From an uncultured Planctomycetia bacterium (GTDB lineage: Bacteria; Omnitrophota; Gorgyraeia; Pluralincolimonadales; Pluralincolimonadaceae), in assembly GCA_964650515.1 (NCBI GenBank), contig CAZYUB010000008.1, forward strand, positions 16,126 to 80,125: 64,000 bases of DNA, given 5' to 3'. The notes beneath the pieces were generated by a model. That model saw nothing but the letters and a program-made list of their open reading frames with translations, ran no database searches and was not told the DNA's origin. Of the stretch, positions 4,063 to 64,000 are shown piece by piece; within the stretch, counting starts at the first letter, position 1; each line of letters starts with the position of its first letter. Both the position numbers and the translations under genes were made by a program.

Positions 4063-6276
4063 TTATTGTGATGATTTTACCACCTGCGCCCACGTATCGT
4101 CAAGCGAATACCTGCGCAGTTCTATGTTTTTCATGAAACCGAACACTTCGTCGAAGACACGTAGCGGTTTTATGACCGTCTGCTGTTTAAGCTCCGGCCA
4201 CTTTCCCGATATCTTTATCATGATACCGTCCTTGACGAAATCGAAACCGAGCGTGGCGGGTATCAGTATCTGCCTAGCCGTCTTTATCGGGCTCAGTCGC
4301 GAGACATTGGCTCCCGCGGTCATATCGACGTTCCCGGAAAAATCGCAATTTCCGGACATATCTATCTTTATCAGCGGCGACTGGCAGGCGGACCTTACCG
4401 CTATATTCCCGTCCGCCACGTCGAAGCCCGCCCTTATCTCCTTGAAATCCGGCAGCACGAAATCCTTTATTACGGAGTTCATTCCTCTCTCAACGGCGAT
4501 GAATATAGGGACCCCTTTGATGCTGCAATCGGCTATCTTCACATAACCGCCGCCTATCGCGGCTTTCGGCTGCCCGAGGACGCCCGAGCACGCGATGTTA
4601 GCGTCAAGAAGGCCCTTCATTCCCGAAAGCCGGGCGTCTTCCAGGGATAGGGATGACAGGTCGCATTTTTCAAGGTCGAATGAAAAACCCCACTTCCGGG
4701 GCGAGAGCCCCGCATCGAATCTTACTCTTGCCGCGGCCGTGCCTTCGTAAAGCGGGAATTTCGGCGCTTCACAGTCCACGAGCCCGTCCTTGACCGCCGC
4801 TTTTATAGAGAACGACTTAGGCGTCATGTCGAACAGGGTGAAATCGTCCACTTTCACGCCGGTCCTGCCGTTGAACGAAGCGGTCCGGTCAAGTTCCCCG
4901 GAAAGCGTTCCCGATACCGATGCCTTGCCTGACATCTCGCGCTTTACCAGCCCGGCCACCCTGCCGATATCCGAAAGGTCTATGTCACCGGCCATATCGA
5001 TATCGAAAACGAGCCCCTTCAGGTCGTTCGACGAGGCCTTCACCGCAAGCTTCGAGTAGGACGTGAATACCTGCAGGACCGATGAGGCCTTATCCGGGCC
5101 CGATATCTCCATATCGAGAGTGTTGCGTATGCCGCACACCTGGCCGTCGACGGAAAGCCGTTTCGGCTCCCCGAATATGAACATGCCCTTGTATGATACC
5201 GGCTTTTTGAACGCCTGGCCCTCGATATCCGATATATCCACGCCGTCTTTGTCTATGTAAGCCCGGCATTCCGCGCCGGAGACCATCACGTTCTCCCCCG
5301 CGCTTATCTCCATTCCCTTCAACACGAGCTCCGCGTAAGATACTCTCTTGCCCTTCAGGCGCTCGAACGTGTGCTTCATGACACAATCGGCGGATATGTG
5401 AAGGTCCCCATAAGTGATCTCGCCGTCCCTGAGGCCGTAAACACCCTCCATCCTGAACATCCCCGGAGAGAATGCTATATCCGCCTTGAGTTCGGCATCC
5501 CCGACCTTCAGTTCCCACGGTTTTATGAGGTCGTCTATATAGTAGCTCCAGTACTCGTTTATGTTGGGGGTATTTATCCTTATACTGCCCTTCCCGCGGG
5601 GCTCGGCGTCCGGGGAATATTCTAGCGACAGCTTCAGCGAGCCCTTCTTCGGGCCGGTCGATTTCGTCGAGAGAGCGATCCTGCTGCCGTTACCAGAGCC
5701 CGTGACGGAGACGTAAGCGATATCGTATGTCTTTTCTATAGAATTCCCGGGGACAAGGCGGTCGGAATACCTTGCTTTCCCGCCCAGGAGGCGTAGTTCC
5801 TTTACCGTTACCTGGAAGCCGCCGAAATGTTTAGACGCGTCATCCCCAATGCCCATGCTCGCAAGCGGGCCGACGTTCCATAAGCCGTCGCTGCCGCGGT
5901 ACACGTTAAGTTCCGCGTCCGTGATATCGAACCTCCTTATCGTCACGCGCTTGAAGAGCAGGTCAAGCCATGCGAGGTCTATATCGACCGCTTTCGACGA
6001 CACGATATAGTCGGACGGGGAGCCGTTCTTCGTATAAAGCCGGACATCCTTTAACAGGAAACCTGTTGCTGGCACGAAATCGATATCGCCCACGGAGACC
6101 ATCAACGGGCCGGTATTGCCCGATTCGAGGTACGCACGGACCTTAGGTATGAGGACGCGCGGGATGAATACCTTGCCGATGTACTGGCACAACAAGGCAT
6201 AGATGACCACAACCGCGGCGAGTAAATACGCGGGCCGGCGGAACCTGCCGAATATACTTTTACTGCGTCTCTCCAT
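4063..6276 (-). CDS. AsmA-family outer-membrane assembly protein (N-terminal membrane anchor, large periplasmic domain)
   Basis: 737 aa; N-terminal hydrophobic anchor (YLLAAVVVIYALL); AsmA/TamB-like composition; ends at carB. Confidence 0.6.
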   Translation of the reverse strand: MERRSKSIFGRFRRPAYLLAAVVVIYALLCQYIGKVFIPRVLIPKVRAYLESGNTGPLMVSVGDIDFVPATGFLLKDVRLYTKNGSPSDYIVSSKAVDIDLAWLDLLFKRVTIRRFDITDAELNVYRGSDGLWNVGPLASMGIGDDASKHFGGFQVTVKELRLLGGKARYSDRLVPGNSIEKTYDIAYVSVTGSGNGSRIALSTKSTGPKKGSLKLSLEYSPDAEPRGKGSIRINTPNINEYWSYYIDDLIKPWELKVGDAELKADIAFSPGMFRMEGVYGLRDGEITYGDLHISADCVMKHTFERLKGKRVSYAELVLKGMEISAGENVMVSGAECRAYIDKDGVDISDIEGQAFKKPVSYKGMFIFGEPKRLSVDGQVCGIRNTLDMEISGPDKASSVLQVFTSYSKLAVKASSNDLKGLVFDIDMAGDIDLSDIGRVAGLVKREMSGKASVSGTLSGELDRTASFNGRTGVKVDDFTLFDMTPKSFSIKAAVKDGLVDCEAPKFPLYEGTAAARVRFDAGLSPRKWGFSFDLEKCDLSSLSLEDARLSGMKGLLDANIACSGVLGQPKAAIGGGYVKIADCSIKGVPIFIAVERGMNSVIKDFVLPDFKEIRAGFDVADGNIAVRSACQSPLIKIDMSGNCDFSGNVDMTAGANVSRLSPIKTARQILIPATLGFDFVKDGIMIKISGKWPELKQQTVIKPLRVFDEVFGFMKNIELRRYSLDDTWAQVVKSSQ

Positions 6277-15300: not shown

Positions 15301-16752
15301 TTAAGCCCTGTTGACTACGAATGTCCTCTTTAGCGAATCCTTAAGCCTGCCCTTCTTCAGGTCGCGCGCTATCGCGCTGACAAGAAGGCGCGGCATCACC
15401 GCGACAAGGGAGGCGACCTCCCCTAAAGACAGGAACCTGTTACTGAAAACGCCCTTCCAAAATACCCTGATAAAACGCTGCGGCGTGTAAAAGGAGAACT
15501 TGATGGTCCTGCCTATCTTCTTGAGCGCCGCGTGGCTGTAGGTATCCGAGTACAGTTCGCCCTTCTCGGTAATGTGGTAACCGGCCGTCTTCTCGGCCAG
15601 TTCCCTGAGCGGCGAGAACCTCTCTATCCTCAGCTTGTTGCACGATATGAAATCCAGCCCGATCTCTTTAGCGAACCTCGGGATATAGAGCATCTCTTCC
15701 TTGCTCTCCCCGATATTGCCGTAAATGAAATACCCGTTATAGAAGATCGGGTACTTCTTGAGCACTTTAAACGCCTTGCGGACCGTTGCCGAATCGAACC
15801 CCTTGTTCAACTGCGCAAGGATGCGGTCGTTCGGGGATTCTATCCCCATCAGCAGGGCCTTGAACCCAGCCTTGACCATCTTTTCGAGCAGGCGCGGATG
15901 CTTGTATATCTCTATACGCGCCTGGGCGATGAAACGCTTCTTTATCCCGCGCTCGATGATGCCGTCGCACAGTTTCTCCGCCCTTGAGGGATTCACAAAA
16001 AGGTCGTCATCGCTGAAGAGTATCACCTGGGCGGTTATGCCTTCGAGCTCTTCCAGGACAGAATCGACGCTTCGCGCCGAATAGGTCCTTTTCTGGCCCA
16101 GCGGGTTAAGGCTGAACGTACAGAATTTGCAGTTGTGAGGGCAACCCCTTGCGCTCAATACCGAATCGAAGGTCAGGCCCATCACTTCTATGCCATTGAT
16201 CGCGAGCTTGTATTTGTTCGCCCTCAATGCCCGGTCCGGGGAATCGATATCATTTACGTCGCGCAGCGGCCTGTTCTTGTTGTGGACCACGGCGCCGTTC
16301 TCCGCGTACGATATGCCGAGGATATCCTTCAGCGGGACCCCGTTGAGTATATCCTTTATCGTCTCCTCGCCCTCACCGCGGACTATTATGTTTATCTTTG
16401 GGCACAGCTTGAAAAGCTCATCCGCCATCTCGGTCGCCTTGTATCCCCCTACGACGAGGGTCTTTCCGGAAGGCATGCGGTTCAGCAGGTCGCATATCTC
16501 CTTGAACTGGCGGTCCCAGCCGATGCTGACGCAGATTATGTCGATCTCTTTCGATATGAAATCGAGCAGTTTTGCGGTGTCCGAAAGTTCCTTCTCATAC
16601 CTGAGGTCGAGCATGGAGATCCTGCCGACAAGGCCTTCGGCGCTTGTCGCGACGTATTCGAGGCCGGTCGGAGGAAAAAGCTTCATTACACTGGTGTTGT
16701 TGCTCTCAATGTAGGGATTCAGGAACAAGGCATGATCGTATTTCACCTGCAT
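15301..16752 (-). CDS. B12-binding-domain radical SAM enzyme (class B)
   Basis: N-terminal cobalamin-binding-like domain and CPHNCKFC radical-SAM cluster motif. Start moved to the internal Met (MQVKYDH) so that it abuts the upstream stop instead of overlapping it by 89 nt. Confidence 0.75.
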   Translation of the reverse strand: MQVKYDHALFLNPYIESNNTSVMKLFPPTGLEYVATSAEGLVGRISMLDLRYEKELSDTAKLLDFISKEIDIICVSIGWDRQFKEICDLLNRMPSGKTLVVGGYKATEMADELFKLCPKINIIVRGEGEETIKDILNGVPLKDILGISYAENGAVVHNKNRPLRDVNDIDSPDRALRANKYKLAINGIEVMGLTFDSVLSARGCPHNCKFCTFSLNPLGQKRTYSARSVDSVLEELEGITAQVILFSDDDLFVNPSRAEKLCDGIIERGIKKRFIAQARIEIYKHPRLLEKMVKAGFKALLMGIESPNDRILAQLNKGFDSATVRKAFKVLKKYPIFYNGYFIYGNIGESKEEMLYIPRFAKEIGLDFISCNKLRIERFSPLRELAEKTAGYHITEKGELYSDTYSHAALKKIGRTIKFSFYTPQRFIRVFWKGVFSNRFLSLGEVASLVAVMPRLLVSAIARDLKKGRLKDSLKRTFVVNRA

Positions 16753-43692: not shown

Positions 43693-46600
43693 TCAGAACT
43701 TATACCTGACATCAGCCCAGCCCGTATGCGCAGTGAAGTCCTCCTTGTATTCGAAATCATAGTTCGTCTCTAACACCCAGTTGTTATTCGCTATTAGGGT
43801 CACCTTGGCGCCGGCGTTCAGCGAGTTCTGCGCGGGATCAAAGCCGTTGGTAGCGAACGAGCCGCCTCCGCCCGAGAATGTCGAGGTCGTCTCCTGCCTG
43901 TCTCCGATAAAGTCATAAAGCCATTTCGCGTGGATCTCGGGTATTATCGTCCCCGTCTCCGTCTTGAACGGGCGCTCGAGCTTCATGCCGAGGCCGGACT
44001 GCAGGAGGTCGTAATTCTGGCTGTTGACGTGCAGGTTGAGCGCGCCCGCGTTCTTCTCCGTGTAGCCCTCAAGATGGAGCCGTTCGTACTGCAACGACGC
44101 CATGGGAGTGATGCCGAATTCGCCGGATTTGAACGTGTATCCTCCGTCCAGCAGCACGGAATACTGCTGGCCGTCATAATCAGAATTCGCAGTCCTCATT
44201 ATAGTGCCGACCGCTATATGCCTCGAGCTGTCATATTTATTATAGGCAAACGAGAAAGCGCCGTTCAGGTAATACGGGTTCTCCGCGTCCGCGTAACCGG
44301 CATAAAGCGTGCCCTGGTAGCTGTCTATGTCCGTCTTGCCGCTGTTATCCTTCGAATTGATGCCGCTCTGCGCGTAACCGCCGCTGAGGCCCATGCGGAC
44401 CCTGTTATTGAATGCCGGGATGTCCCCGCCGATGGCCGTGCCCCAGACGGTAGCGCGGTAACCGTTACTCGAGCCGCGCGGCTCCTGGCGAAGGTATTCA
44501 CCGAAGCCCTGGCCCCAAGCCTCAAAACCCTGCAGACCTTCGCATCCTGCCGACACGCCGGTTTCTCCGTCGCGCGCTCTTGCGAAGAGGCCCGTAAGCC
44601 TGTCGGTTACTGTACCTATAAACTGCCCTAATGACAGGTTGCTTGAGGCGATCACGCCGCCGTCCACGACCGGGATAAGAGTGTCCAGGGATGAGCCCAC
44701 TTCCGCATTGTTCAACCCTTCGAGCGCGTTCAACACGTCCGCCATGTCATCGGTCGGGTCAGATATATTGTCAAGCACTGCGCCTACAGCGGCAGTGTTG
44801 GAGTTCGTGGCGTCACCCGCAAAACCCTGTCCCGGGCCTGAACGGTTTACCGTAAGGATAAGGTCGCCGCCGACACTCGAGCCTATGAGAGTATATCTCG
44901 AATTGCTTGATGTTATCGTAGCAGGCACATTCACGCCGGCGCCTCCCGCTCCGTCTATGATTTTCAAGGTAGCATTATTCGGCAGATATTCGGTTATAGT
45001 GACATTGACCGCGCTTGCGGCGGAGACAACGGCATCGGCAGCGGATACGATACTGCCGAAGCTCGAAACGGAAGCCGCGTTCAACCTCAAGGTTGAGCCC
45101 GCCGCCTGCGTATAGACGCCGTTAAAAGTCAATGTAGTCGACCCGATATCGAGGGTGGCATTGTTCGTTAACGCCCCCGTACCGACGGCGCTGGCGTTGC
45201 TTGCCCTCAACGTACCCGCATTGATCGTCGTAGTCCCGGTATATGTGTTCGCGCCGCTGAAGATAAGGGTGCCTGTCCCCTCTTTCGTGAACGCCGTCGC
45301 AGCGGTACCGTCTGCGATGACTCCGCTGTATGTAGTGGAGCTGTCGTTGCCGCCCGCAACCAGCGTGCATGCACCGGCGCGGTTTATGACATTGCCTGCG
45401 CCGGAAAGCGAGCCTATAGTCTCGTTCTTGCCATTGAGGTCAAATTCCGCTCCCGCCGCGATATTAATGGCGCTGGCATCCGGTATGACCCCGGAGGCGC
45501 CGAGAGTAAATTTGCCTTCGTTGATGTTAGTCGCTCCGGTATAATCGTCCCCTGTCATGTAAAGCAGGAGTTCTCCCGCTCCGCTCTTATTTACGTCGCC
45601 ATTCCCGGTGATCTTGCCGGTCAGGTTGTTCACGATAAGAAAATCACCCGCGCCGGTGAATGTTATGTCGTATCCTGCGGCGCCGGTATTGATGTTGCGG
45701 TAGATGAGCATGCTGCCTGCCGCATCCGATACCCCGATAGTGCTGTCGGCAGTAAGCGTTATGGTGCCTGAATAGGTGGACATTCCGGCAGAGCTGTTGA
45801 AGAGCGCTCCTTCACCGGCGGTGCCGGTGCCGGCTATCGAGAGCGGTTCGTCTTCGCCGGCGGTGAAAAGGTCGTGCCCGTTAAGGTCCATGGAACCGCC
45901 CGAATTTATAGTAGTCCCCGAGGTCTGGTCGCCGAGTGCGGAATCATCCCCAAGCTTCACCGTTCCGGCGTTTATCGTAGTTGTGCCGGTATAGGTATTG
46001 ACGCCTGATATCGTAGTCGTGCCGGTCCCGTTATGCTCTACGCTCATCGCGCCGGATATTACAGGGCTGAAAGTAAGCGCCGCGCTCGTGTGGTTGAAAA
46101 CCAGCTTTGCGGTACCTGCGCCTGCGGCGACTTCAGCTGCGGTCAGAGTACCGGCCGCCGCGCCGTTGCCTATATTGACGGTACCTACAGAACCTGCGGC
46201 ACTGGCCACGTTAACGGTCCCGGCCCCCCCATTGACATTGACGGTGGCGCTGTCGGCAACGGTCAATGTGCCCGTGCCGTTAAGCCCTACGTCGATATCG
46301 TTGTTCGTCACATATGTAGAACCTGTGCCCGTGACGGTCAGGACGCCCACCGAATCCGCGCTCGTGCTACCTATATACGTCTTTTCGTTCGATACGGTAA
46401 AATCTCCGCCGTTCGAGACGGTCAGCGATCCGTTGGTGTTATCGCCTATGACAACGCCCCAGGTGTTAGTCCAGTTCGATCCTGAGCCGATGTTCAGGAC
46501 ACCCGTAGTCGCACCATCGAACTTGGTCCAGCTCGTGCAGCCGCCGACATAATTGGTCAGTGTCACGTCATAGCTGTTTAGGTCCAATGTGGTTTCGAAA

Positions 46601-46842
46601 CCGAGGGATGTGACGTAACCGGTCAGGTCTATCGTGCCGGAAGCCGCGCTTTCGTTGAATTCGATGGTGCTCGTCGCGCCGTGGCTATTGACGTCATCGA
46701 TAGCCTGGCTGAAAGATCCGGCGCCGTTAGGATCATAGTTGGTCACAGTAAAGGTATCGGCGCATGCAGTTGGCGCAAATGCAAAGATGAGAAATAATAT
46801 CGTGAGGGGTATTACCGAAATATTCTTGTCGGCCTTTATCAT
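43693..46842 (-). CDS. autotransporter (type Va) with a long G/T/A-rich beta-helical passenger and C-terminal 12-strand barrel
   Basis: Signal peptide; numerous autotransporter-associated beta-strand repeats (GTGT.., NGG...); C-terminal barrel ending WADVRYKF. Confidence 0.8.
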   Translation of the reverse strand: MIKADKNISVIPLTILFLIFAFAPTACADTFTVTNYDPNGAGSFSQAIDDVNSHGATSTIEFNESAASGTIDLTGYVTSLGFETTLDLNSYDVTLTNYVGGCTSWTKFDGATTGVLNIGSGSNWTNTWGVVIGDNTNGSLTVSNGGDFTVSNEKTYIGSTSADSVGVLTVTGTGSTYVTNNDIDVGLNGTGTLTVADSATVNVNGGAGTVNVASAAGSVGTVNIGNGAAAGTLTAAEVAAGAGTAKLVFNHTSAALTFSPVISGAMSVEHNGTGTTTISGVNTYTGTTTINAGTVKLGDDSALGDQTSGTTINSGGSMDLNGHDLFTAGEDEPLSIAGTGTAGEGALFNSSAGMSTYSGTITLTADSTIGVSDAAGSMLIYRNINTGAAGYDITFTGAGDFLIVNNLTGKITGNGDVNKSGAGELLLYMTGDDYTGATNINEGKFTLGASGVIPDASAINIAAGAEFDLNGKNETIGSLSGAGNVINRAGACTLVAGGNDSSTTYSGVIADGTAATAFTKEGTGTLIFSGANTYTGTTTINAGTLRASNASAVGTGALTNNATLDIGSTTLTFNGVYTQAAGSTLRLNAASVSSFGSIVSAADAVVSAASAVNVTITEYLPNNATLKIIDGAGGAGVNVPATITSSNSRYTLIGSSVGGDLILTVNRSGPGQGFAGDATNSNTAAVGAVLDNISDPTDDMADVLNALEGLNNAEVGSSLDTLIPVVDGGVIASSNLSLGQFIGTVTDRLTGLFARARDGETGVSAGCEGLQGFEAWGQGFGEYLRQEPRGSSNGYRATVWGTAIGGDIPAFNNRVRMGLSGGYAQSGINSKDNSGKTDIDSYQGTLYAGYADAENPYYLNGAFSFAYNKYDSSRHIAVGTIMRTANSDYDGQQYSVLLDGGYTFKSGEFGITPMASLQYERLHLEGYTEKNAGALNLHVNSQNYDLLQSGLGMKLERPFKTETGTIIPEIHAKWLYDFIGDRQETTSTFSGGGGSFATNGFDPAQNSLNAGAKVTLIANNNWVLETNYDFEYKEDFTAHTGWADVRYKF

Positions 46843-51043: not shown

Positions 51044-52486
51044 TCAGGACAACCTTCCCAGGAGTTCCCGTAATGAAACCAGCGCTATAGCCGTCTGTTG
51101 GTCGGATAACGCGTACGGGATGATTAGCGCATCACCATGGAGTAAAGCACCGCATGAATATACCACGTTCGGGACATATCCGGAGCGGGTATCGTCCTCC
51201 CAATGGATAAGCGGCTCCTTCAACCTTCCGATCACTTTTGAAGGGTCATCGAGGTCGAGCAAAGCTGCGCCGATCGAATACTGGCACATCGGGCCGACTC
51301 CGTGGGTCAGCAGCAGCCACCCGCGGCCGGTCTCTATCGGTGAACCGCAATTGCCTATCTGCACGAACTCCCACGGGCATAAGGGCTCCATGATCGGGAC
51401 GGCTTCGTGCCAGAAATGTATATTGTCGGAATACATCAGGAAGAGCCTTTCATTATCGTTACGGGATATCATAGCATAAAGGCCGTTTATCCTGCGAGGG
51501 AACAGCGCCATGCCTTTGTTGACCGCCGCCTTGCCGTTCAGCGTGATCATTTTGAAGCGGATAAAATCTTCCGTCTCCATTATCTGCGGCAGTATTGCCC
51601 TTCCGTCATACGCCGTATAGGTGGCGTAGTACCTGCCTGTCCCGTCATCGTCCCTGAAGAACACGAAACGCGCGTCTTCCATCCCGTTCTGCTCGCTCGG
51701 TGAAAGCGGGAACAACACGCGTTCCGAAAGCGGCGACCCGCACATGAAGTCCGCCTCATAATTGCACCGGGCAAGCCAAAGTATCTTTTCGCAGGTTATC
51801 TTATCCGTATGCGCAAGCGGCTGGTGGCCGGCGATATATTCATTCGCCCTATCCTCGAGATGCCCCATCGTGAACTGGTCCTGGAGCGGCCCCGTAATGA
51901 ATCCTGAACAATCGTTTTCCAGCCCCATCTCAAAAAGTTTCCTGACAAAACATGCCTTATCGTACAGCGTATTTGGTCTCGGTTCCGCGATACAAGCGAG
52001 GCCTGAAGCTTCGTCTATTGCTACTGATCCGTCCCGGCCCGCGACTCCAGAGCGGAATGTCAGCGTGGATATATGCCCTTCACCCGTTGCGCGCAATGAA
52101 ATGATAAAACGCAGTGAACCCTCGGGGATCCCCGATTGGTCGGGGTGCGCTATAATAGACGGATTGAACAGGGCGGTTGATTCATACGAACGCTCTCCGA
52201 TGAAATATGCCCCGATAAGCAGCCTTTGCGTCCTTGATGGGGAGAAATCGGCAGGCATATGGGAACGGACGACCTCGAATTGGCGCTCGAGTATAGTTTC
52301 GAAATTATAGTGCCGCGCCGAAAAATCCTTTATTGTCTTCCCAAGCTCTTCATCCGCGGCAGGCGCGCCAAGCGCCATGACACGCGCGATTATTTTAGGC
52401 ACTCTCGACTGGTCGCCGGGAATATACGGCCTGATTATGACACGCTTGCTGTCGGGAACGATCGATACGCCTGCGTCCTTTATCAT
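51044..52486 (-). CDS. glycoside hydrolase family 130 (GH130)-like (DUF377) glycoside phosphorylase/hydrolase with ~200-aa N-terminal extension
   Basis: C-terminal GH130 signatures (YVPNVVYSCGALLHGDALIIPYALSDQQT, GSPIETGRGWLLLTHGVG). Confidence 0.7.
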   Translation of the reverse strand: MIKDAGVSIVPDSKRVIIRPYIPGDQSRVPKIIARVMALGAPAADEELGKTIKDFSARHYNFETILERQFEVVRSHMPADFSPSRTQRLLIGAYFIGERSYESTALFNPSIIAHPDQSGIPEGSLRFIISLRATGEGHISTLTFRSGVAGRDGSVAIDEASGLACIAEPRPNTLYDKACFVRKLFEMGLENDCSGFITGPLQDQFTMGHLEDRANEYIAGHQPLAHTDKITCEKILWLARCNYEADFMCGSPLSERVLFPLSPSEQNGMEDARFVFFRDDDGTGRYYATYTAYDGRAILPQIMETEDFIRFKMITLNGKAAVNKGMALFPRRINGLYAMISRNDNERLFLMYSDNIHFWHEAVPIMEPLCPWEFVQIGNCGSPIETGRGWLLLTHGVGPMCQYSIGAALLDLDDPSKVIGRLKEPLIHWEDDTRSGYVPNVVYSCGALLHGDALIIPYALSDQQTAIALVSLRELLGRLS

Positions 52487-54774
52487 TCTTCCAACGGCTC
52501 CTTGAGGCTCTCGAGGACATTTTCCATCTGCGTCATTTCCGTAAGGGATAAAAGGAACGAGAGGGTGGATTCTGCGCCCTGGTTGCGGTTCACCCTGTTT
52601 ATATGGAGGCCGTCACAGCAACCGCCCGTAACCGGATCATATAAGGAGATCCCGAGATCGTTGCTCCCGAGGAACCACTGGAAGACATTCAAGGCCTCCT
52701 CATACCACGCCTTATCCCTTGTCACGCGATAGGCGTCCAGGCATGCCGATACGGTGGAATAGGCCTCGACCGGCTGCTGGTCAAAAACGGGCTTTACCCC
52801 TCCCTTGCGGTATTCACCGTCGGTACCTACCGGCTGGAAATGGCCGCGCGGTGATGTCTGTACTTTTGTAAGCCATTTCAGGGACTCTATCCCTGACTTC
52901 AGCATCTCCGCGTTATCGAGATCGTGCCCGCTCAAAAGCAGCGCGTGGGGAAGCCTGGCGTCGCAATATGTAAGGGATTCCTCAAACCACCGCCATTCGT
53001 CGCTATTGTTTGCCTTATACAGGTCGTAAAGCCGTGACGCGAGCGTCTGCAGGCAGTTACGCGCAAGCCTGTCGCCGTGAAAACGCTGCAGGTATTCATG
53101 TATGCCGAGTAGCGTAAAAGCCCATGCCCTGGGAGATGTGAACGACAATGTGGGAGCAAGGGCCTTTTCAAAAATTTCTACCGACATCTGGGTGAACCCC
53201 TCGTTCTTGGACTGCCCTATGCAGGTACCGATAGCCCATATCGCCCTACCGTGGCAATCTTCGCTCGGCACCTCTTCCTTCCAGTTCCGCTGGAACGTCA
53301 GGAAATTCCTGAATCGCCCGGCGGACGGGTCCCACGCATACGTGACAAACCCGAGGTAGCGGCTCGCGAGGTCGTTTATCTTTACGGGATTTATCGAGCC
53401 GAGATTCTCGAGCAGGACGGCCAGGATCAGCGCGCGCGCGTTATCATCCGTGCAATAACCTTCGGAAAAATTCGGGACATTGAACGTGGCATGCTGGAAG
53501 ACGCCTATAGAATCGGTCATCCGTATCAGATGGTCGAGTTTTATATCCGGCAATACCGGATACTCGTGCTCGAGAGGGTGCATCGTTATCTTCTTCTGCG
53601 CGACAGAGGGGCGTTTTGTCTTTGCTTCCTCGAAGATCGACGCGTATTTCGACCCGGTTTTGCTCCATATCATATCGCGGCCGAGAAGATAAGCGTTCTT
53701 GCGCATCGCGTTGCGTTCATTATCATTGGCAATGAGCTTTGTTATCGCCTGGGCCGTCGCCTCCGGGTCGTTGAACGGCACGAGGATACCCCTGCCGTCG
53801 CTGAGCAGTTCGGCGGCATGCCAATACGGAGTGGAGATGACAGCGTTGCCTACCCCGAACGAATAAGCAAGCGTGCCGGAAGTTACCTGGGCCTCCTCAA
53901 GGTACGGAGTGATATAAATATCCGCGAGCACGAGCAATTCTTTAAGTTCTTCGGGAGAAACGAAATGGTTATGGAAGATCACGTTCCCGGATATCCCGAG
54001 TTCATCGCAAAGGATCTGCAGGGAAAGCCTGTAGGCCTCACCTTCATGCCTCAACAGGTTCGGATGCGTGGCGCCGACGATAATGTACACCACGTTCGGA
54101 TACTCCTTTATGACTTTCGGGAGCGCGCGCAGGACTACCTCTATCCCCTTTCGCGGCGAAAGCAACCCGAACGTCAGGATAGTCGTCTTGCCCTCGACCC
54201 CGTACTGGTCCTTATAAAAATTCGGGTCAATAAAAGACACGTCCGGTATACCGTGCGGGACCAGCCTTATCTTGGACTTTTGCGCCTTATTTACCGACTC
54301 AAGGATATCGACGGCCTTTTGCGTCATTACTATCACGCTGTCCGAGAGGCTGATCAGCTCATCCATGACACGTTTCTGGCGCGCGGACGGATTCTTCAAT
54401 ACAGTGTGCAGGGTCGTTATGACAGGCATATTCAACTGGCGCAATAAAGCCAGTATATAGCTGCCGTCGTTGCCTCCGAAGATGCCGAATTCATGCTGCA
54501 GGCAAACGACATCGACATTATTGAGGTTCAGGAAGTCCGCGGCCGCTTTATACGAGTCTATGTTCTGTTCTTTGATCTCGAAGCGAACGCGTTCAGGGTA
54601 ATCATAACCTTCCTCGATATCCGTGACCGGTATAGCGAATACCTGGACAGATGGGTTCAGGGCCGCGAACGCCTCGCAAATATCGGTGGTAAAAGTCGCT
54701 ATACCGCAGCGCCTCGGCAGGTAATTTCCTATAAACGCTATTTTTTTTATCTCGTTTGCCATTGCCCTTCCCAA
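52483..54774 (-). CDS. GT4 glycosyltransferase fused to a C-terminal ~370-aa alpha/alpha-toroid (six-hairpin glycosidase-like) domain
   Basis: N-terminal 390 aa: GT4 Rossmann pair with EX7E-like region. C-terminal domain rich in W/aromatic residues, GH63/GH15-like. Track start is TTG at 54774; ATG MANEIKK at 54762 is equally plausible. Confidence 0.7.
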   Translation of the reverse strand: MGRAMANEIKKIAFIGNYLPRRCGIATFTTDICEAFAALNPSVQVFAIPVTDIEEGYDYPERVRFEIKEQNIDSYKAAADFLNLNNVDVVCLQHEFGIFGGNDGSYILALLRQLNMPVITTLHTVLKNPSARQKRVMDELISLSDSVIVMTQKAVDILESVNKAQKSKIRLVPHGIPDVSFIDPNFYKDQYGVEGKTTILTFGLLSPRKGIEVVLRALPKVIKEYPNVVYIIVGATHPNLLRHEGEAYRLSLQILCDELGISGNVIFHNHFVSPEELKELLVLADIYITPYLEEAQVTSGTLAYSFGVGNAVISTPYWHAAELLSDGRGILVPFNDPEATAQAITKLIANDNERNAMRKNAYLLGRDMIWSKTGSKYASIFEEAKTKRPSVAQKKITMHPLEHEYPVLPDIKLDHLIRMTDSIGVFQHATFNVPNFSEGYCTDDNARALILAVLLENLGSINPVKINDLASRYLGFVTYAWDPSAGRFRNFLTFQRNWKEEVPSEDCHGRAIWAIGTCIGQSKNEGFTQMSVEIFEKALAPTLSFTSPRAWAFTLLGIHEYLQRFHGDRLARNCLQTLASRLYDLYKANNSDEWRWFEESLTYCDARLPHALLLSGHDLDNAEMLKSGIESLKWLTKVQTSPRGHFQPVGTDGEYRKGGVKPVFDQQPVEAYSTVSACLDAYRVTRDKAWYEEALNVFQWFLGSNDLGISLYDPVTGGCCDGLHINRVNRNQGAESTLSFLLSLTEMTQMENVLESLKEPLEE

Positions 54775-59132: not shown

Positions 59133-62100
59133 TTATTTTAACGGAACGGTTATGTCGGCCGGCAGTTTTTTGAACTCTATTTGGCCGCCCACGCCATAAG
59201 GCAATATGAAGACAAACCCTTCGGGAGGCCGCGCTTTGCCCGAGACCTTTATGCGAAGCCCTCCTTTTTCCTCTTTTATTGAATAACTTAAAGTCCCGTA
59301 GTATGTCGGAAAATTCCCTATAGACACCCCTTCCTTGCCCAGGAGCCATTTCCGCGGTATACCGTGGCCCAGGATAAGGCGGCCGTCTTTTTCGTACACA
59401 AATAAACTCCTGAATGCATTTATATATATCGATGCGACCCATGTGTGGGGCAGGTCGCCGACGAACCACGGCTTCCGGTCGTCAGCCAGTATCCCTTCCG
59501 CCCATCCGTTCCAGGCAAGCGGCCTGTGCAGCCTCAGGTATTCTTCCATCATCCTCACGGCCTTTTCCCTTTGGTCCAGCAGGACGAATACCTGCGCTAT
59601 CCTGATGGCATACGGCGAATACGACCATTGAGGGCCCGCCGCCAGGCTCGGAGCGAACTGGTCCGTCCAGAATATGCCGAAGGTATTATAGAGCGAATCC
59701 TGGGGAAGGAACTGCGACTCTTCCGTAGGCCAGACCGCGATGGCCGTTGAAGGCGCGTCAAAATCGGCCTTCTCGACGCAGCCCGGTATATATTTTATCT
59801 TCGCGGATTCCCGGACCGCTTTAATGGAATCATAAACGCTCTTCCTGAAATCCGCCGCCTCCTTTTCCGCCCTGGCCGATAGTTCGCTGTCCCCGAGTAT
59901 AGCAGCGATCTCACCGGCATCCTTCCACCCCCTTATCCCCCAGAAATCATCCCAATAGCTGTGCATGCCCGGCGCCGGGAAATATCCCTCGTGGCTGACC
60001 GAGCGCGGGAATATGCCTGACGGCTCTTCCTTCCTGAGGGCTTCCATGAAATCCAGGACGCGTTTTACCGCGGGAAGTTTCCCTTTAAGCCACGCTTTGT
60101 CCCCGGAGAAACGGTAGTATTCGAGGACTGCGTAGACATATTGCCCCTGGCTGTCATACTCCTCGAACTCCCTCTCCCACGCGGGTTCCGCGGCGGCCTC
60201 TGATATCATAATAGGGGGCACTTTGCCGTCCGGCTTTATATGTCCGGTAAACCAGTCCAGGTATTCCTTCGCCTCGGCAGTGTGCCCCATCCTCATCATA
60301 GCGGCCGAAGCCGAACACGCGTCGCGTATCCAGGACTTCTTGTAAGCGCCGGAGCCGCCCTGCAGCATCGGCCCGTTTTTATTTATAAGGATATACGCGA
60401 GGCTGGTCTTGACGGCATCCGACATCTCTTTATCCGGGATATTTATCCGGACCTTGTTTAATTTTTCTTCCCAGGACCTCCTCGTCTTCTCCTGCATCGC
60501 GTCAAAATTCTTACTACGCGGTTTGCCGCCATGCAGCGGAATGATGAACAGGTATTCCTTTTCGGCTTTCGGGGCTATGCTGAAACCGTATTCAAGGGCT
60601 CCTGAGGCGTAGTCGAAAGGATCACTGACCGATCTCCTCGGGGTTATCGTCCCGGCCTTCAGATCGTCAATGAGGGTGTCTTCCATATACGTCGAGCCGC
60701 CAAACTTATCCGGCACAGTAAGGGAGACGAGGCGGTCTTTGCCGTCTATCTTCAGCGTATGCCCGCCCTTCGCATCATATTCCAGGCTCCTTATCATCGC
60801 CATCCCGCCGCTCCACTGCCATGAGGGATAGACCTGGAAAGGCCTTATGGTCAGGAAGAGTTTCCCTTCCAATTTCTTTTCGCTTTTGTTCTTTAACTTA
60901 TACCTGATGCAGGTAATGGCCTCGCCTTGCTTGCCGTAGCCGAACAGTTTCTGGGAAAAGGCCAGGCCGTCATTCTCCCAAACGACTTCGGGCATCGGAA
61001 GATAACCTTTTTCAAGGGACTGCGAGATCCGGAAATCCTCGCGGGTAAGGAGTTTACCGTCCATGTAAATGAAAGGCATCAGGGACGGGCCCCAATTATA
61101 CATTTGTATCTGGCCGTCTTCGCAGAAACAGCTCTCGGCAATATCCCCTTCCACGCCGACCACGGTCCAGTATGCCTGGCGGCCCCCTATCCATTCCGGA
61201 TAATATTTCCTTTCCGAGGGTTTCGCCTTCATCTGGTAATAACTCTGCGCGTCCAGCCGTTTCCTGATCTGCGGGACGGCATCCCCGTCCTGCACGAGCA
61301 CTATTGGCGGTTTGGATATGCCTCCGCCGCCCCACTCATCGAAGACGCGGAAAGTAAAATCATTCGGTTTACCCGGGACCAGGTATTTCCCTACGGGCGT
61401 AACGGTCAGCGTCTGGTTCACGCTGCCGTGTATAGTCGAGTCCTTGGCCCTCGGGCCGTAGCCGGCAACGAACTGGCCGTTAACATAAAGCTCGTAAGCG
61501 TCGTCCACTCCGCCTATCATCAGGACGGCCTTGCCGTCGTCCCAATTTTCGGGAATCGGAACATCCTTCTTGTACCAGGCGTATCCGTCGTAATCCGGAA
61601 AGCCCTGGTCTTCCCATAACCGCCCCGTCTCTATCTTGGCCCAGTCCTTTGAGGCGTCTGTCCTGAAATCCCATTCGCCCTCGAGAGGTATTATATCTGC
61701 CGTATTTATCCTGCCGGGATCATTGATACCGGCGCCGTTTACGGAGACCTCAAAGAGCGAATAGCCCCACTCCGTGGCCCTCTTTCCGAAAACCAGCTTT
61801 ATGTACCGCGCGGCGGCCTTATCGAAATATATCTCTTCATTGCCGCCGGCGCCTTTATCTTGTTTATATACGCTCTTCCAGTCCTTGCCGTCATCGGAGA
61901 GCAGGACCTCATAAGAAGACGCATATGCCGTCTGCCAGAAGAGCGTCAACCCGGATATTTCTTTGGACTCGCCGAGGTCGATCTCGAGCCATTCGTTGTC
62001 GGAGAACTTGCTGCCCCATCGCGTGGCCGTGTTGCCGTCGAGTACATATTCAGGCCCAAACGCGTCATTTTCCGATGACGACGCGGTTACCTTAATCTCG

Positions 62101-62195
62101 GCAGCGTATGATATGGAAGAAAATAGACAAATACAGGCCGCCGCTGACAAGCAATATTTCAGGTTTGCTCCTATATTTCCGGCTTTTCTATTCAT
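59133..62195 (-). CDS. secreted multidomain glycoside hydrolase: N-terminal F5/8-type-C (discoidin) domain plus large alpha/alpha-toroid catalytic region
   Basis: Signal peptide; discoidin markers (VTASSSEND...AxDGNTATRWGS...WLEIDLG); 1020 aa. Confidence 0.75.
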   Translation of the reverse strand: MNRKAGNIGANLKYCLSAAACICLFSSISYAAEIKVTASSSENDAFGPEYVLDGNTATRWGSKFSDNEWLEIDLGESKEISGLTLFWQTAYASSYEVLLSDDGKDWKSVYKQDKGAGGNEEIYFDKAAARYIKLVFGKRATEWGYSLFEVSVNGAGINDPGRINTADIIPLEGEWDFRTDASKDWAKIETGRLWEDQGFPDYDGYAWYKKDVPIPENWDDGKAVLMIGGVDDAYELYVNGQFVAGYGPRAKDSTIHGSVNQTLTVTPVGKYLVPGKPNDFTFRVFDEWGGGGISKPPIVLVQDGDAVPQIRKRLDAQSYYQMKAKPSERKYYPEWIGGRQAYWTVVGVEGDIAESCFCEDGQIQMYNWGPSLMPFIYMDGKLLTREDFRISQSLEKGYLPMPEVVWENDGLAFSQKLFGYGKQGEAITCIRYKLKNKSEKKLEGKLFLTIRPFQVYPSWQWSGGMAMIRSLEYDAKGGHTLKIDGKDRLVSLTVPDKFGGSTYMEDTLIDDLKAGTITPRRSVSDPFDYASGALEYGFSIAPKAEKEYLFIIPLHGGKPRSKNFDAMQEKTRRSWEEKLNKVRINIPDKEMSDAVKTSLAYILINKNGPMLQGGSGAYKKSWIRDACSASAAMMRMGHTAEAKEYLDWFTGHIKPDGKVPPIMISEAAAEPAWEREFEEYDSQGQYVYAVLEYYRFSGDKAWLKGKLPAVKRVLDFMEALRKEEPSGIFPRSVSHEGYFPAPGMHSYWDDFWGIRGWKDAGEIAAILGDSELSARAEKEAADFRKSVYDSIKAVRESAKIKYIPGCVEKADFDAPSTAIAVWPTEESQFLPQDSLYNTFGIFWTDQFAPSLAAGPQWSYSPYAIRIAQVFVLLDQREKAVRMMEEYLRLHRPLAWNGWAEGILADDRKPWFVGDLPHTWVASIYINAFRSLFVYEKDGRLILGHGIPRKWLLGKEGVSIGNFPTYYGTLSYSIKEEKGGLRIKVSGKARPPEGFVFILPYGVGGQIEFKKLPADITVPLK

Positions 62196-62225
62196 TACAA
62201 CTCCGCATTAAGTCGAATTCGGGTA

Positions 62226-62243
62226 TATGCTCTCGCGAGCATA
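62226..62243 (-). promoter_or_regulatory. LacI-type operator palindrome TATGCTCTCGCGAGCATA between promoter B and the GH start
   Basis: 17/18 symmetric, central CG; same GCTC-N4-GAGC core as 58013..58028. Confidence 0.55.
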
Positions 62244-62282
62244 AGCTTATCATACTTTCGTGCTTTGTCAAGTATGGCATAA

Positions 62283-62311
62283 AAAACCCCGATCGTTATG
62301 ATCGGGGTTTT
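62283..62311 (-). terminator. rho-independent terminator (AAAACCCCGATC-GUUAU-GAUCGGGGUUUU) after the low-GC island gene
   Basis: 12-bp perfect stem with a flanking A/U run; symmetric, so it could act bidirectionally. Confidence 0.8.
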
Positions 62312-62370
62312 CCCATTCAATCAAACCGCATTTATGACATTTGGGAAACCTCTCTGATTTAGCTGGCTTT

Positions 62371-62425
62371 ATTATAGGGGTAATACCTTACTATATCAAG
62401 GAATTTCGGGAATTAGAGAGGGATT
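62371..62425 (-). repeat. promoter cassette copy B (CCGAAATTCC-TTGATA-17-TATAAT) driving the discoidin-GH/LacI operon
   Basis: See copy A. Confidence 0.65.
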
Positions 62426-62543
62426 TCCTCGCTAAATATGTCCGTTTTGTCCGGTCTTTCTTGGCCGAAAATGACGTAACTATTTGAGGAATCGAAAGAT
62501 AAGGTTGTCCACACCTTGAGAAGCGGACAAAGAGCCAGCGCTT

Positions 62544-63533
62544 TTAACTGCCACCGCCTAAAATTTCACCGGTTTCAGCATCTATCCATACGTGTGCGGG
62601 ATCATAGTTCTTGGTGAATATCTCATCATAGCCCCAAGAGAAGCTTACTATCCACGCAAGACGGGTATAGGATTGAGGGTATTTACTATAATCCTTTACA
62701 CCTATTTTGCTGAAACCCTTTGCGAATTGGCCTTCAAAATAATTCGGGTTTGTTATCTGTAATTCGGCATCAAGAGCCTCGCCTGATTTATAACCGAATA
62801 ACCTCGCCATCTTCTTTGCAAATGGTTTTGCTATTCCAATCGCTTTTTCTTTTGAGATATTAACAATCAAAGAATCGGGAGGATCAGAGAAAAATACATA
62901 CCCGTATCCCGCAAGACCATACTTCTCATGTATAGTTACCCTTATTCCATCAAATCTATACTTATAACCACCTGTTTTTCTTCCCCAGTCAACTCGCCAT
63001 AGCCCTTCATAATATCGCTTTGTGTCAATACCAGAGGAATTATTATCGTAAATCGCTTTTTCATAATAAGCATCCTTTGGTATTTCACCATTAATTATTT
63101 GAATATACTTCTCGGCCTCCTTGATTATAAACTCCCTTTTCTCTTTGGGCTTAGAGCCACCCTCAAATACAGGAGCACCAACTCCACTTATTATATCGGT
63201 AATATACCTATTAGATAATCCTCTTATCGTTCCATCAACATAATCAATATCCATCACAATACCACTGTGCAGACAAGCAACATTCCACACTTTTTTGCCA
63301 TACCATTCTGTTTCAACGCCTATATTAAACGATTCATATTTGATTTTATCTCTATCAATATTAAACAAATTAAGAATTTTCAGTTTATCTGAATATATTA
63401 CAAATAATTCCTGTTTCGCAATACTTTTTGTCGCTCCGCATAATGCTAGGCTATTTATACATATTGCTAGAATAAACAATACTAAAATAACTATATAAAT
63501 TTTCATTCTACGGCGATAAATCAATACTGTCAT
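62544..63533 (-). CDS. hypothetical membrane-anchored/secreted protein encoded in a low-GC island
   Basis: N-terminal hydrophobic segment; AT-rich codon usage unlike every other gene in the window. Confidence 0.5.
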   Translation of the reverse strand: MTVLIYRRRMKIYIVILVLFILAICINSLALCGATKSIAKQELFVIYSDKLKILNLFNIDRDKIKYESFNIGVETEWYGKKVWNVACLHSGIVMDIDYVDGTIRGLSNRYITDIISGVGAPVFEGGSKPKEKREFIIKEAEKYIQIINGEIPKDAYYEKAIYDNNSSGIDTKRYYEGLWRVDWGRKTGGYKYRFDGIRVTIHEKYGLAGYGYVFFSDPPDSLIVNISKEKAIGIAKPFAKKMARLFGYKSGEALDAELQITNPNYFEGQFAKGFSKIGVKDYSKYPQSYTRLAWIVSFSWGYDEIFTKNYDPAHVWIDAETGEILGGGS

Positions 63534-64000
63534 CTTTGGGTCCTAAACAATTAATATTATCCGCATAGTTAATTTTATTTCCTGCAAGCTCATCAACTGC
63601 AACTTTTATAAAATATGGTTTCAGCGTATTACGATCAATTTGATTCATTTTATTAAAAAATGCCTTTGAATAATTTAATGCCGCCATCGGATTCGAAGGT
63701 ATTTTCCATCCCATATACTTACCAGTATTAAAAGCAGAAACAAATTCATCGGTATTGCTAGCAGTTTTTTCATCGCCACTTAGGCAAGCATTAATAAATA
63801 CTAGTTTATAACTATTATTATTCATACTGTCACTAACTTGTCGAGGGAATACTACTGTTGGCCACACTGTCGTTGTAGAATACTCATCTTCAATTGTTGA
63901 CTCTAACTTAATTCCTCTGTATATCATATTTGGTGCATACCCATGAGACGTTATGTACAATATTGAATGATTTGGTAACTCTTCCAGAAATTCCTTTGTT
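63508..64000 (-). CDS. clan CD (caspase/legumain/gingipain-like) cysteine peptidase homologue, 5' end beyond window
   Basis: Frame stays open to the window edge (..TKEFLEELPNHSILYITSHGYAP..). The His-Gly dyad after a beta-strand (ILYITSHG) and the downstream LVFINACLSG resemble the legumain FIYFTDHG / IEACESG pair. Confidence 0.45.
   Translation of the reverse strand, partial: TKEFLEELPNHSILYITSHGYAPNMIYRGIKLESTIEDEYSTTTVWPTVVFPRQVSDSMNNNSYKLVFINACLSGDEKTASNTDEFVSAFNTGKYMGWKIPSNPMAALNYSKAFFNKMNQIDRNTLKPYFIKVAVDELAGNKINYADNINCLGPKDDSIDLSP

Follow-up and report, generated by a model that had tools for sequence, protein, structure and literature searches.

The 3′-most part of a 64,000-nucleotide stretch of an uncultured bacterial genome (contig CAZYUB010000008.1, forward-strand positions 16,126 to 80,125; the whole stretch is referred to as the window) contains two adjacent minus-strand genes that, on balance, are read here as encoding an exported CHAT-like protease and a co-translated PepSY protein that would act as its chaperone and inhibitor. 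The first gene (gene 1) is cut by the edge of the window and contributes most of a C-terminal domain with the motifs of a clan CD cysteine peptidase, whereas its partner is complete and encodes an exported protein with three tandem PepSY-like domains. A first-pass annotation, made from the sequence alone, had described the pair as a caspase/legumain-like peptidase fragment and a membrane-anchored protein of unknown function, carried on a recently acquired low-GC island with a possible link to defence or conflict. The features of the two genes are as follows.

63508 to >64000, minus strand: last 163 codons and stop of a large gene cut by the window edge (from translation, the C-termini of relatives, AlphaFold 2 and Foldseek).
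63943 to 63945, minus strand: codon of His19 of the fragment (S-H-G after the strand ILYIT), the putative catalytic His, invariant in the family and aligned with the SAVED-CHAT dyad.
63784 to 63786, minus strand: codon of Cys72 of the fragment (LVFIN-A-C-LSG), the putative catalytic Cys, invariant in the family and aligned with the Cys of LVVLNAC in 8tl0.
62544 to 63506, minus strand: partner gene for a 320-residue exported protein with three tandem PepSY-like domains (from a weak Pfam match, homologues, AlphaFold 2 and Foldseek).
63438 to 63506, minus strand: N-terminal hydrophobic segment of the partner, MKIYIVILVLFILAICINSLALC, a Sec signal peptide (A-x-C/G, then E/G) or signal anchor, from reading of the sequence.
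62547 to 62891, minus strand: third PepSY domain (residues 206-320), the most conserved part by per-domain identities.

The CHAT-like domain and its PepSY partner

The two motifs that first pointed to clan CD, ILYITSHG and LVFINACLSG, are both present exactly as described in the open reading frame (ORF) at 63508 to >64000. The window holds the last ~77% of a C-terminal domain of ~211 residues; by comparison with relatives, the first ~48 residues of this domain and ~1,100 residues upstream of it would lie beyond position 64000. The 163-residue fragment is 58% identical to the C-terminus (last ~165 residues) of a 1275-residue protein at L001 (GCA_022710515.1; fetched loci are given here as L numbers and proteins as P numbers) and 41-55% identical to the C-termini of proteins at L003, L004, L007 and L009; a related protein likewise precedes the partner homologue at L005 and L006. 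It has no match in Pfam, NCBIfam or PADLOC, a word-indexed protein search returned no relatives of it, and the family profile drew only four. Searched exhaustively with phmmer, a set of 1.84 billion representatives yielded 41 remote relatives (E-values from 5e-13 to 9e-4, ~30-35% identity), in which the domain is nearly always located at the extreme C-terminus.

Across the 41 aligned domains, the His, the Cys and one Tyr are invariant at a mean column identity of 23%, and the Gly of H-G, the Asn of N-x-C and several aromatic residues are conserved in at least 90% of sequences. The His and Cys are likewise invariant in a second family alignment of 37 members. Weak Pfam matches of family members all belong to clan CD, namely CHAT in 11 of 41 (best E-value 6.7e-7), Peptidase_C25 in five, C50 in one and C14 in one (E = 0.04), with C13 in none. 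The fragment itself matches neither Peptidase_C14 nor C13, and neither the fragment nor the L001 domain matches CHAT (PF12770) even at E ≤ 1. When all PDB sequences were searched with the family profile, the sole protein retrieved was the SAVED-CHAT protease 8tl0 (E = 0.0023), in which IGHG aligns with the H-G motif and LVVLNAC with LVFxNxC. The aligned His-Cys spacing in the 8tl0 chain is 47, which is the spacing of H375 and C422, the experimentally proven dyad of SAVED-CHAT in which C422 serves as the nucleophile.

Structural comparison gives a similar picture. An AlphaFold 2 model, for which the input was the truncated window fragment with 36 relatives rather than the full domain, has a predicted local distance difference test score (pLDDT) of 91.9 and a predicted template modelling score of 0.87. 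In this model, S-H-G follows the strand at residues 13-17 and A-C follows the strand at residues 66-70, so that the putative catalytic residues occupy the canonical positions after two successive β-strands. The Foldseek matches in the PDB are, in order, SAVED-CHAT (1e-5), Craspase TPR-CHAT/Csx29, the CHAT domain of DdvA, separases, gingipains K and RgpB, clostripain and other C11 peptidases, and the cysteine protease domain (CPD) of MARTX; the 41 best-ranked matches are all clan CD proteins. As modelled, the domain has a caspase fold and belongs, as a divergent form with predicted peptidase activity, to clan CD. Its nearest family is CHAT, and because the sequence fails the Pfam CHAT model, it is described here as CHAT-like rather than as a member of that family. 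The first-pass assignment to clan CD thus stands in its fold and in its H-G/A-C motifs, which hold the conserved putative dyad, while the caspase/legumain label gives way to CHAT and the apparent free-standing fragment to the C-terminal domain of a protein of ~1,300 residues in relatives.

Judging by these relatives, the full gene product would be an exported multi-Ig/fn3 protein of ~1,280-1,310 residues. The 1275-residue protein at L001 consists of a signal peptide, CarboxypepD_reg, fn3, Big_7 and Glucodextran_B domains, ~600 residues without recognised sequence, and the C-terminal domain of ~211 residues. Apparently full-length members of the family all begin with signal peptides or lipoprotein signal peptides, and they bear immunoglobulin (Ig)-like domains. 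The N-terminal regions are highly variable, with family proteins ranging from 261 to 1618 residues, while the C-terminal domain and the partner remain constant; many of the short members are contig fragments, however, which accounts for part of the apparent variability. Upstream of the module at L001 (2703-10978), and also at L008, genes for MerR, an AAA_22 ATPase, a GspC-like (T2SSC) protein and a secretin lie on the same strand with minimal gaps, an arrangement that hints at a dedicated outer-membrane export route and is seen in one lineage only. An RHS-repeat protein is encoded further upstream at L001.

The gene that follows the CHAT-like gene was initially delimited as the longest ORF (62544-63533), which exists and would give 329 residues, with a 26-nt overlap between the two genes. 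This overlap is likely to be a start-codon artefact of choosing the longest ORF, as the partner in relatives starts at a conserved Met, usually 0-3 nt past the upstream stop (at L003, L004 and L007, for example). In the window, the start is probably the ATG at 63506 (TAGAATG), 1 nt after the stop codon of gene 1, which yields a protein of 320 residues; the start at 63533 is an alternative. Among partner homologues, the N-terminal hydrophobic segment ends in a conserved A-L-C/G followed by E-T, and a helix is predicted at residues 3-21. These features fit a cleavable signal peptide (signal peptidase I) at least as well as an anchor. A lipoprotein reading was considered and rejected, given that P0006 has Gly in place of the Cys that precedes the predicted cleavage site and that the Leu at position -1 is unfit for a lipobox.

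The Pfam PepSY model (PF03413) matches the last ~40 residues of the partner, and hence its last domain only, at 19 bits, which is below the cut-off of 24. Its homologues are 55-67% identical and include P0006, named “PepSY domain-containing protein” by NCBI, and P0002, which has a precomputed PF03413 match. The AlphaFold 2 model of the partner (pLDDT 75.6) displays three units, each made up of a helix packed against an antiparallel sheet of four strands, as in M4 propeptides and YpeB. Foldseek relates this model to the C-terminal domain of YpeB (5boi, 6e-8), the propeptide of vibriolysin MCP-02 (3nqy_A) and the prodomain of Aspergillus fumigatus Mep (4k90_B), with E-values from 6e-8 to 8e-5; the domains are oriented differently with respect to one another, which keeps template modelling scores low (0.26-0.44). 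On the strength of the model, the partner is a triple-PepSY protein that resembles YpeB and M4 propeptides. Of the earlier “membrane-anchored unknown”, then, the hydrophobic segment is retained, with an anchor as one of its two readings, and three PepSY domains, modelled by AlphaFold 2 and matched by Foldseek, take the place of the unknown.

The association between the two genes was surveyed with hidden Markov models of both families over six-frame translations of all fetched loci. Each of the 11 distinct CHAT-like genes with visible downstream DNA (one each in the window, L001, L003, L004, L007, L010, L011, L013 and L015, and two at L009) is followed directly by a full-length partner homologue, even where domain identity falls to ~25%. 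A 323-residue gene also follows P0051, a twelfth member that lies outside this DNA-verified set. As annotated, gene 1 and the partner overlap by up to 4 nt or lie up to 46 nt apart, with spacings of ≤3 nt in most cases. Linkage this strict argues strongly, at the level of gene order, that the two genes form a functional module. L009 (3-3763) and L010 (2-2890) each have the pair in duplicate, as diverged copies in tandem: a large CHAT-like gene with a PepSY gene, then a gene for a protein of ~455 residues that ends in a CHAT-like domain (27-28% identical to that of the window), with a PepSY paralogue (39-41%).

Conservation is unevenly distributed along the pair. Relative to L007, the third PepSY domain is 98% identical at the protein level, PepSY domains 1 and 2 are 48-55% identical and the CHAT-like domains are 41% identical; by blastn, window positions 62368-62987 are 91.6% identical in DNA to L007 positions 4437-5056. 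Such a mosaic pattern suggests either recombination within the partner gene or a hypervariable 5′ part of the module.

Composition and genomic setting

The AT-rich end of the window is a real anomaly, lying ~8-9 standard deviations away from the remainder. Before position 62000, 1-kb windows have a mean GC content of 0.544 (standard deviation 0.024, minimum 0.46), and the window as a whole has a GC content of 0.54, compared with 0.323 in its final 1 kb. The fall takes place in two steps, to ~0.43 over 62200-62800 and then to 0.30-0.33 from 63000 to the end of the window. GC content at third codon positions (GC3) is 0.25 in the edge-cut ORF and 0.30 in the 320-residue partner gene, versus 0.70±0.05 (minimum 0.53) in 34 other long ORFs, which bears out the AT-rich codon usage reported at first pass. 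The large drop to ~0.32 is likewise borne out, although the background is ~54% rather than the 58-60% then given and the transition, described as abrupt, comes in steps. In every genome examined, the pair is richer in AT than its own flanks, with GC3 values of 0.30-0.37 for the partner gene and 0.37-0.49 for the CHAT-like gene, and values of up to 0.53-0.73 for flanking genes; in the L001 CHAT-like gene, GC3 is 0.32 across the last 633 nt.

In both the window and L001, the pair is found on the same strand, 6-8 kb upstream of genes for a GT4/GT1 glycosyltransferase of 759/760 residues and a GH130 protein; the distance is 6 kb at L001 and at L008, which also has the pair at this position. The glycosyltransferase and GH130 proteins are 56% and 50% identical, respectively (window 51044-54762 versus L001 17212-20978), and the pair itself is 58-66% identical. 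The genes in between differ, being glycoside hydrolase, LacI and ABC-F genes in the window and beta-lactamase-TENA, CstA, MFS and GlcN-isomerase genes at L001. This comparison shows the window genome and GCA_022710515.1 to be distant relatives with shared local synteny. Because the neighbourhood is shared at a flank identity of 50-56%, the module was most likely already at this position in their common ancestor, and its acquisition would not be recent. The earlier interpretation of the GC drop as a sign of recent horizontal transfer finds no support, given this shared position, at L001 and L008, and the AT-richness of the pair in every genome seen. The module is persistently AT-rich and mosaic (recombining), yet it occupies an old syntenic position in this lineage.

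Some evidence points to exchange all the same, namely the mosaic match to L007 and the setting of a remote member described below. No integrase is encoded in the visible part of the locus, the far end of which lies off-window; there is no tRNA in the window, and flanking repeats do not exceed chance-level short matches. No relatives were found in plasmid or viral contig collections, nor by a scan of genome contigs with the close-family alignment; an exact 55-mer from the end of the window does not occur in the genome or metagenome contig collections. The most remote member examined, P0046 (1257 residues, with a partner of 321 residues; L012, L013 and L014), lies between genes for a phage-type integrase, a ParE toxin, ParB, DUF932 and a TrwC/TraI relaxase, in a context resembling that of an integrative and conjugative element.

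Downstream of the partner gene are three further features.

62343 to 62543, minus strand: non-coding stretch downstream of the partner gene, with homology to relatives as far as 62343.
62274 to 62316, minus strand: intrinsic-terminator hairpin with its core at 62283-62311, followed by six U (from folding and sequence).
59133 to 62195, minus strand: next gene downstream, encoding a 1020-residue F5/8-type-C/GH2_N-like glycoside hydrolase, normal in composition (from Pfam; GC3 0.66).

The non-coding stretch of ~200 nt is 80-92% identical in DNA to its counterparts at L001, L005 and L007, which is far above the conservation of the flanking proteins. It includes a near-consensus promoter-like site on the minus strand (TTGATA-17-TATAAT at 62399 to 62371) and, within 62343-62543, TTGTCC/GGACAA motifs; its counterparts at L001 and L005 lie ahead of a beta-lactamase/TENA gene. 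No conserved RNA structure was found in this intergenic stretch, and a search of 61800-64000 against Rfam gave sub-threshold terminator-like matches only. The hairpin lies outside the conserved module, ~30 nt past the end of homology at 62343 and at the junction with DNA of 54% GC. It folds at -23.1 kcal/mol (z = -4.07; 0 of 200 shuffles fold as well) and went unmarked in a consensus scan. Six consecutive U come after the hairpin on the minus strand only, the plus strand having just TTTT, and the hairpin is thus mainly a terminator of minus-strand genes. The strong terminator placed here at first pass is real, and reads as a minus-strand rather than a bidirectional one. Conceivably, the orphan promoter and the terminator, which are ~60-90 nt apart, could delimit a small transcript or a leader for the glycoside hydrolase gene. 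Elsewhere in the window (43693-46842, minus strand) is a gene for a 1049-residue autotransporter with PATR passenger repeats and a C-terminal β-barrel.

Proposed function and alternatives

In the reading favored here, gene 1 would encode a large Sec-exported protein that ends in a CHAT-like His/Cys cysteine peptidase domain, and gene 2, which starts 1 nt after the stop codon of gene 1, would be translationally coupled to it. Once in the periplasm or on the cell surface, the PepSY protein would bind the peptidase domain and serve as a chaperone-inhibitor in trans. The protease would thereby be folded but silent until export, or until the partner is released or degraded, whereupon the freed domain may act on substrates outside the cell or in the envelope, or on the passenger to which it is joined. 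There are precedents for both aspects of the partner's proposed role. The PepSY propeptides of M4 and M36 proteases act as chaperone and inhibitor of the enzymes that carry them. YpeB, which is encoded just downstream of SleB, has PepSY domains that have been proposed to embrace, stabilise and inhibit SleB (bioRxiv 10.64898/2026.06.01.729290).

Several considerations weigh against this proposal. Only 163 residues of gene 1 fall within the window, and the architecture proposed for its N-terminal part is extrapolated from relatives with 41-58% identity; the fragment itself, moreover, is without a Pfam, NCBIfam or PADLOC match. At L002 (1921-2877, Candidatus Omnitrophota), a partner homologue that is 55% identical is preceded by two unrelated genes of ~210 residues rather than by a CHAT-like gene, and so the partner can exist alone. 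The known partners of PepSY domains are metallopeptidases and a lytic transglycosylase, with no cysteine peptidase among them, and a searchable literature library contained no paper naming both PepSY and CHAT. While the analysis shows the fold, the conserved dyad, the export signals, the PepSY fold and the strict gene linkage, the interaction, the inhibition, the protease activity and the substrates of this pair are predictions.

An effector-like C-terminal domain followed by a small, tightly linked gene is also the arrangement expected of a toxin and its immunity protein, in which case the CHAT-like domain would be a secreted protease toxin used in interbacterial conflict and the PepSY protein would protect the producer's envelope from within the periplasm. 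This would be consistent with the mosaic pattern, in which the CHAT-like domain and partner domains 1 and 2 evolve rapidly together while domain 3 is conserved, as well as with the AT-richness of the module in all hosts, the RHS-repeat protein near the L001 pair and the location of the remote member in a region that resembles an integrative and conjugative element (integrase, ParB and TrwC relaxase). However, a constant C-terminal domain with variable N-terminal parts is the reverse of what is seen in polymorphic toxins. In addition, gene 1 carries no type V, VI or VII secretion, RHS, PAAR or other known trafficking domain, PADLOC gave no match, and the fold of the partner is that of protease prodomains and YpeB rather than that of a known immunity family, such that this explanation is regarded as plausible but unlikely. 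The constancy of the C-terminal domain and partner alongside variable N-terminal regions (261-1618 residues in all) would suit a generic maturation device for variable passengers. Such a device could act through self-cleaving release, like the CPD of MARTX and TcdB, or as a sortase-like transpeptidase, like the C25-related PorU, with the PepSY protein as a membrane-side cofactor. Within clan CD, legumain, GPI8 and PorU have transpeptidase activity, and both the MARTX CPD and gingipains are among the structural matches. On the other hand, there is no evidence for a cleavage or sorting motif, contig fragments explain part of the variability in architecture, and the closest structures are those of true trans-acting proteases; a maturation device is consequently considered quite unlikely.

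Two further explanations concern the nature of the domain and of the locus. It is formally conceivable that the caspase-fold domain has lost catalysis and has only a structural or binding role, as the fragment lacks a Pfam peptidase match and its activity is a prediction, but the invariance of His and Cys in 41 sequences at a mean column identity of 23%, together with their canonical positions in the model, renders this very improbable. Still more improbable is the proposal, made at first pass, of a recently acquired defence or conflict island with an intracellular caspase-like effector and its partner, akin to the CHAT/caspase systems associated with CRISPR or with cyclic-oligonucleotide-based antiphage signalling systems (CBASS). 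The strongly atypical composition would be in keeping with such an island, as would the fact that the closest solved structures are defence-associated CHAT proteases. Against this, the proteins have signal peptides and extracellular-type domains, PADLOC detects no defence system, and no SAVED, TPR, TIR or other sensor domains and no nuclease partners occur in the proteins or among their neighbours (a glycoside hydrolase and a LacI regulator). The pair is also syntenic in a relative with flanking proteins that are 50-56% identical, and this part of the window has no integrase, tRNA or repeats. The defence-island interpretation is disfavoured accordingly.

An exported CHAT-like protease with a PepSY chaperone-inhibitor thus remains the favored reading of the pair. 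A broader proposal is offered tentatively: that the family is an undescribed extracytoplasmic branch of CHAT-like proteins, always accompanied by a dedicated triple-PepSY chaperone-inhibitor or immunity protein acting in trans, which would make it the first pairing of PepSY with a cysteine protease. Its mosaic and mobile character would fit a secreted protease weapon and its self-protection factor. PepSY domains were proposed long ago to be regulators of secreted peptidases, for which direct evidence comes mainly from M4 and M36 propeptides in cis and, recently, from YpeB acting on SleB. A strict operon of a triple-PepSY protein and a clan CD cysteine peptidase would extend this idea to another catalytic class and to action in trans, and the pair provides a simple two-protein system in which PepSY regulation could be tested. 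It would also show that CHAT-like proteases, now studied as cytoplasmic enzymes of defence and signalling, have exported relatives. Finally, the pair marks a gap in annotation, in that the peptidase domain and its association with the partner gene both escape Pfam, NCBIfam and PADLOC.

Comparison with known protease and PepSY systems

The closest similarities of the peptidase domain are to the CHAT peptidases (PF12770), including SAVED-CHAT (8tl0) and Craspase TPR-CHAT/Csx29. The caspase-hemoglobinase fold is shared with these proteins, the H-G and (N/S)-A-C motifs align with H375/C422, and they provide the best structural and profile matches. Unlike them, the window domain is minimal (~211 residues), is found at the extreme C-terminus of Sec-exported, Ig-rich proteins, lacks a SAVED or TPR sensor and, as represented by the fragment, fails PF12770. 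SAVED-CHAT and Craspase, moreover, act on cytoplasmic partners within CRISPR-linked defence pathways. With respect to export, the gingipains (C25) and clostripain (C11) offer a parallel, being exported clan CD peptidases with Ig-like domains and prodomain-mediated latency; these proteins are among the structural matches, and weak C25 matches occur in five of the 41 family members. Gingipains and clostripain, however, have a much larger catalytic domain and are inhibited by a propeptide at the N-terminus of their own chain, whereas in the window pair the putative PepSY inhibitor is a separate protein and the catalytic domain is C-terminal.

The partner invites a different set of comparisons. 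In the M4 and M36 proteases, exemplified by vibriolysin MCP-02 and A. fumigatus Mep, the PepSY fold accompanies a secreted protease, as it does here, and serves as intramolecular chaperone and inhibitor. These propeptides act in cis on metallopeptidases, while the window encodes a free-standing triple-PepSY protein that is paired in trans with a cysteine peptidase. The overall organization of the module is reminiscent of the SleB-YpeB pair, which is involved in lysis of the Bacillus spore cortex. In that system, too, the gene for an enzyme precedes that for its partner within an operon, and the partner has an N-terminal hydrophobic segment and three PepSY domains, with YpeB also being the best fold match. 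The enzyme in the window pair contains a cysteine peptidase domain rather than being a lytic transglycosylase, there is no sporulation context, and sequence similarity between the partners is undetectable past the PepSY motif.

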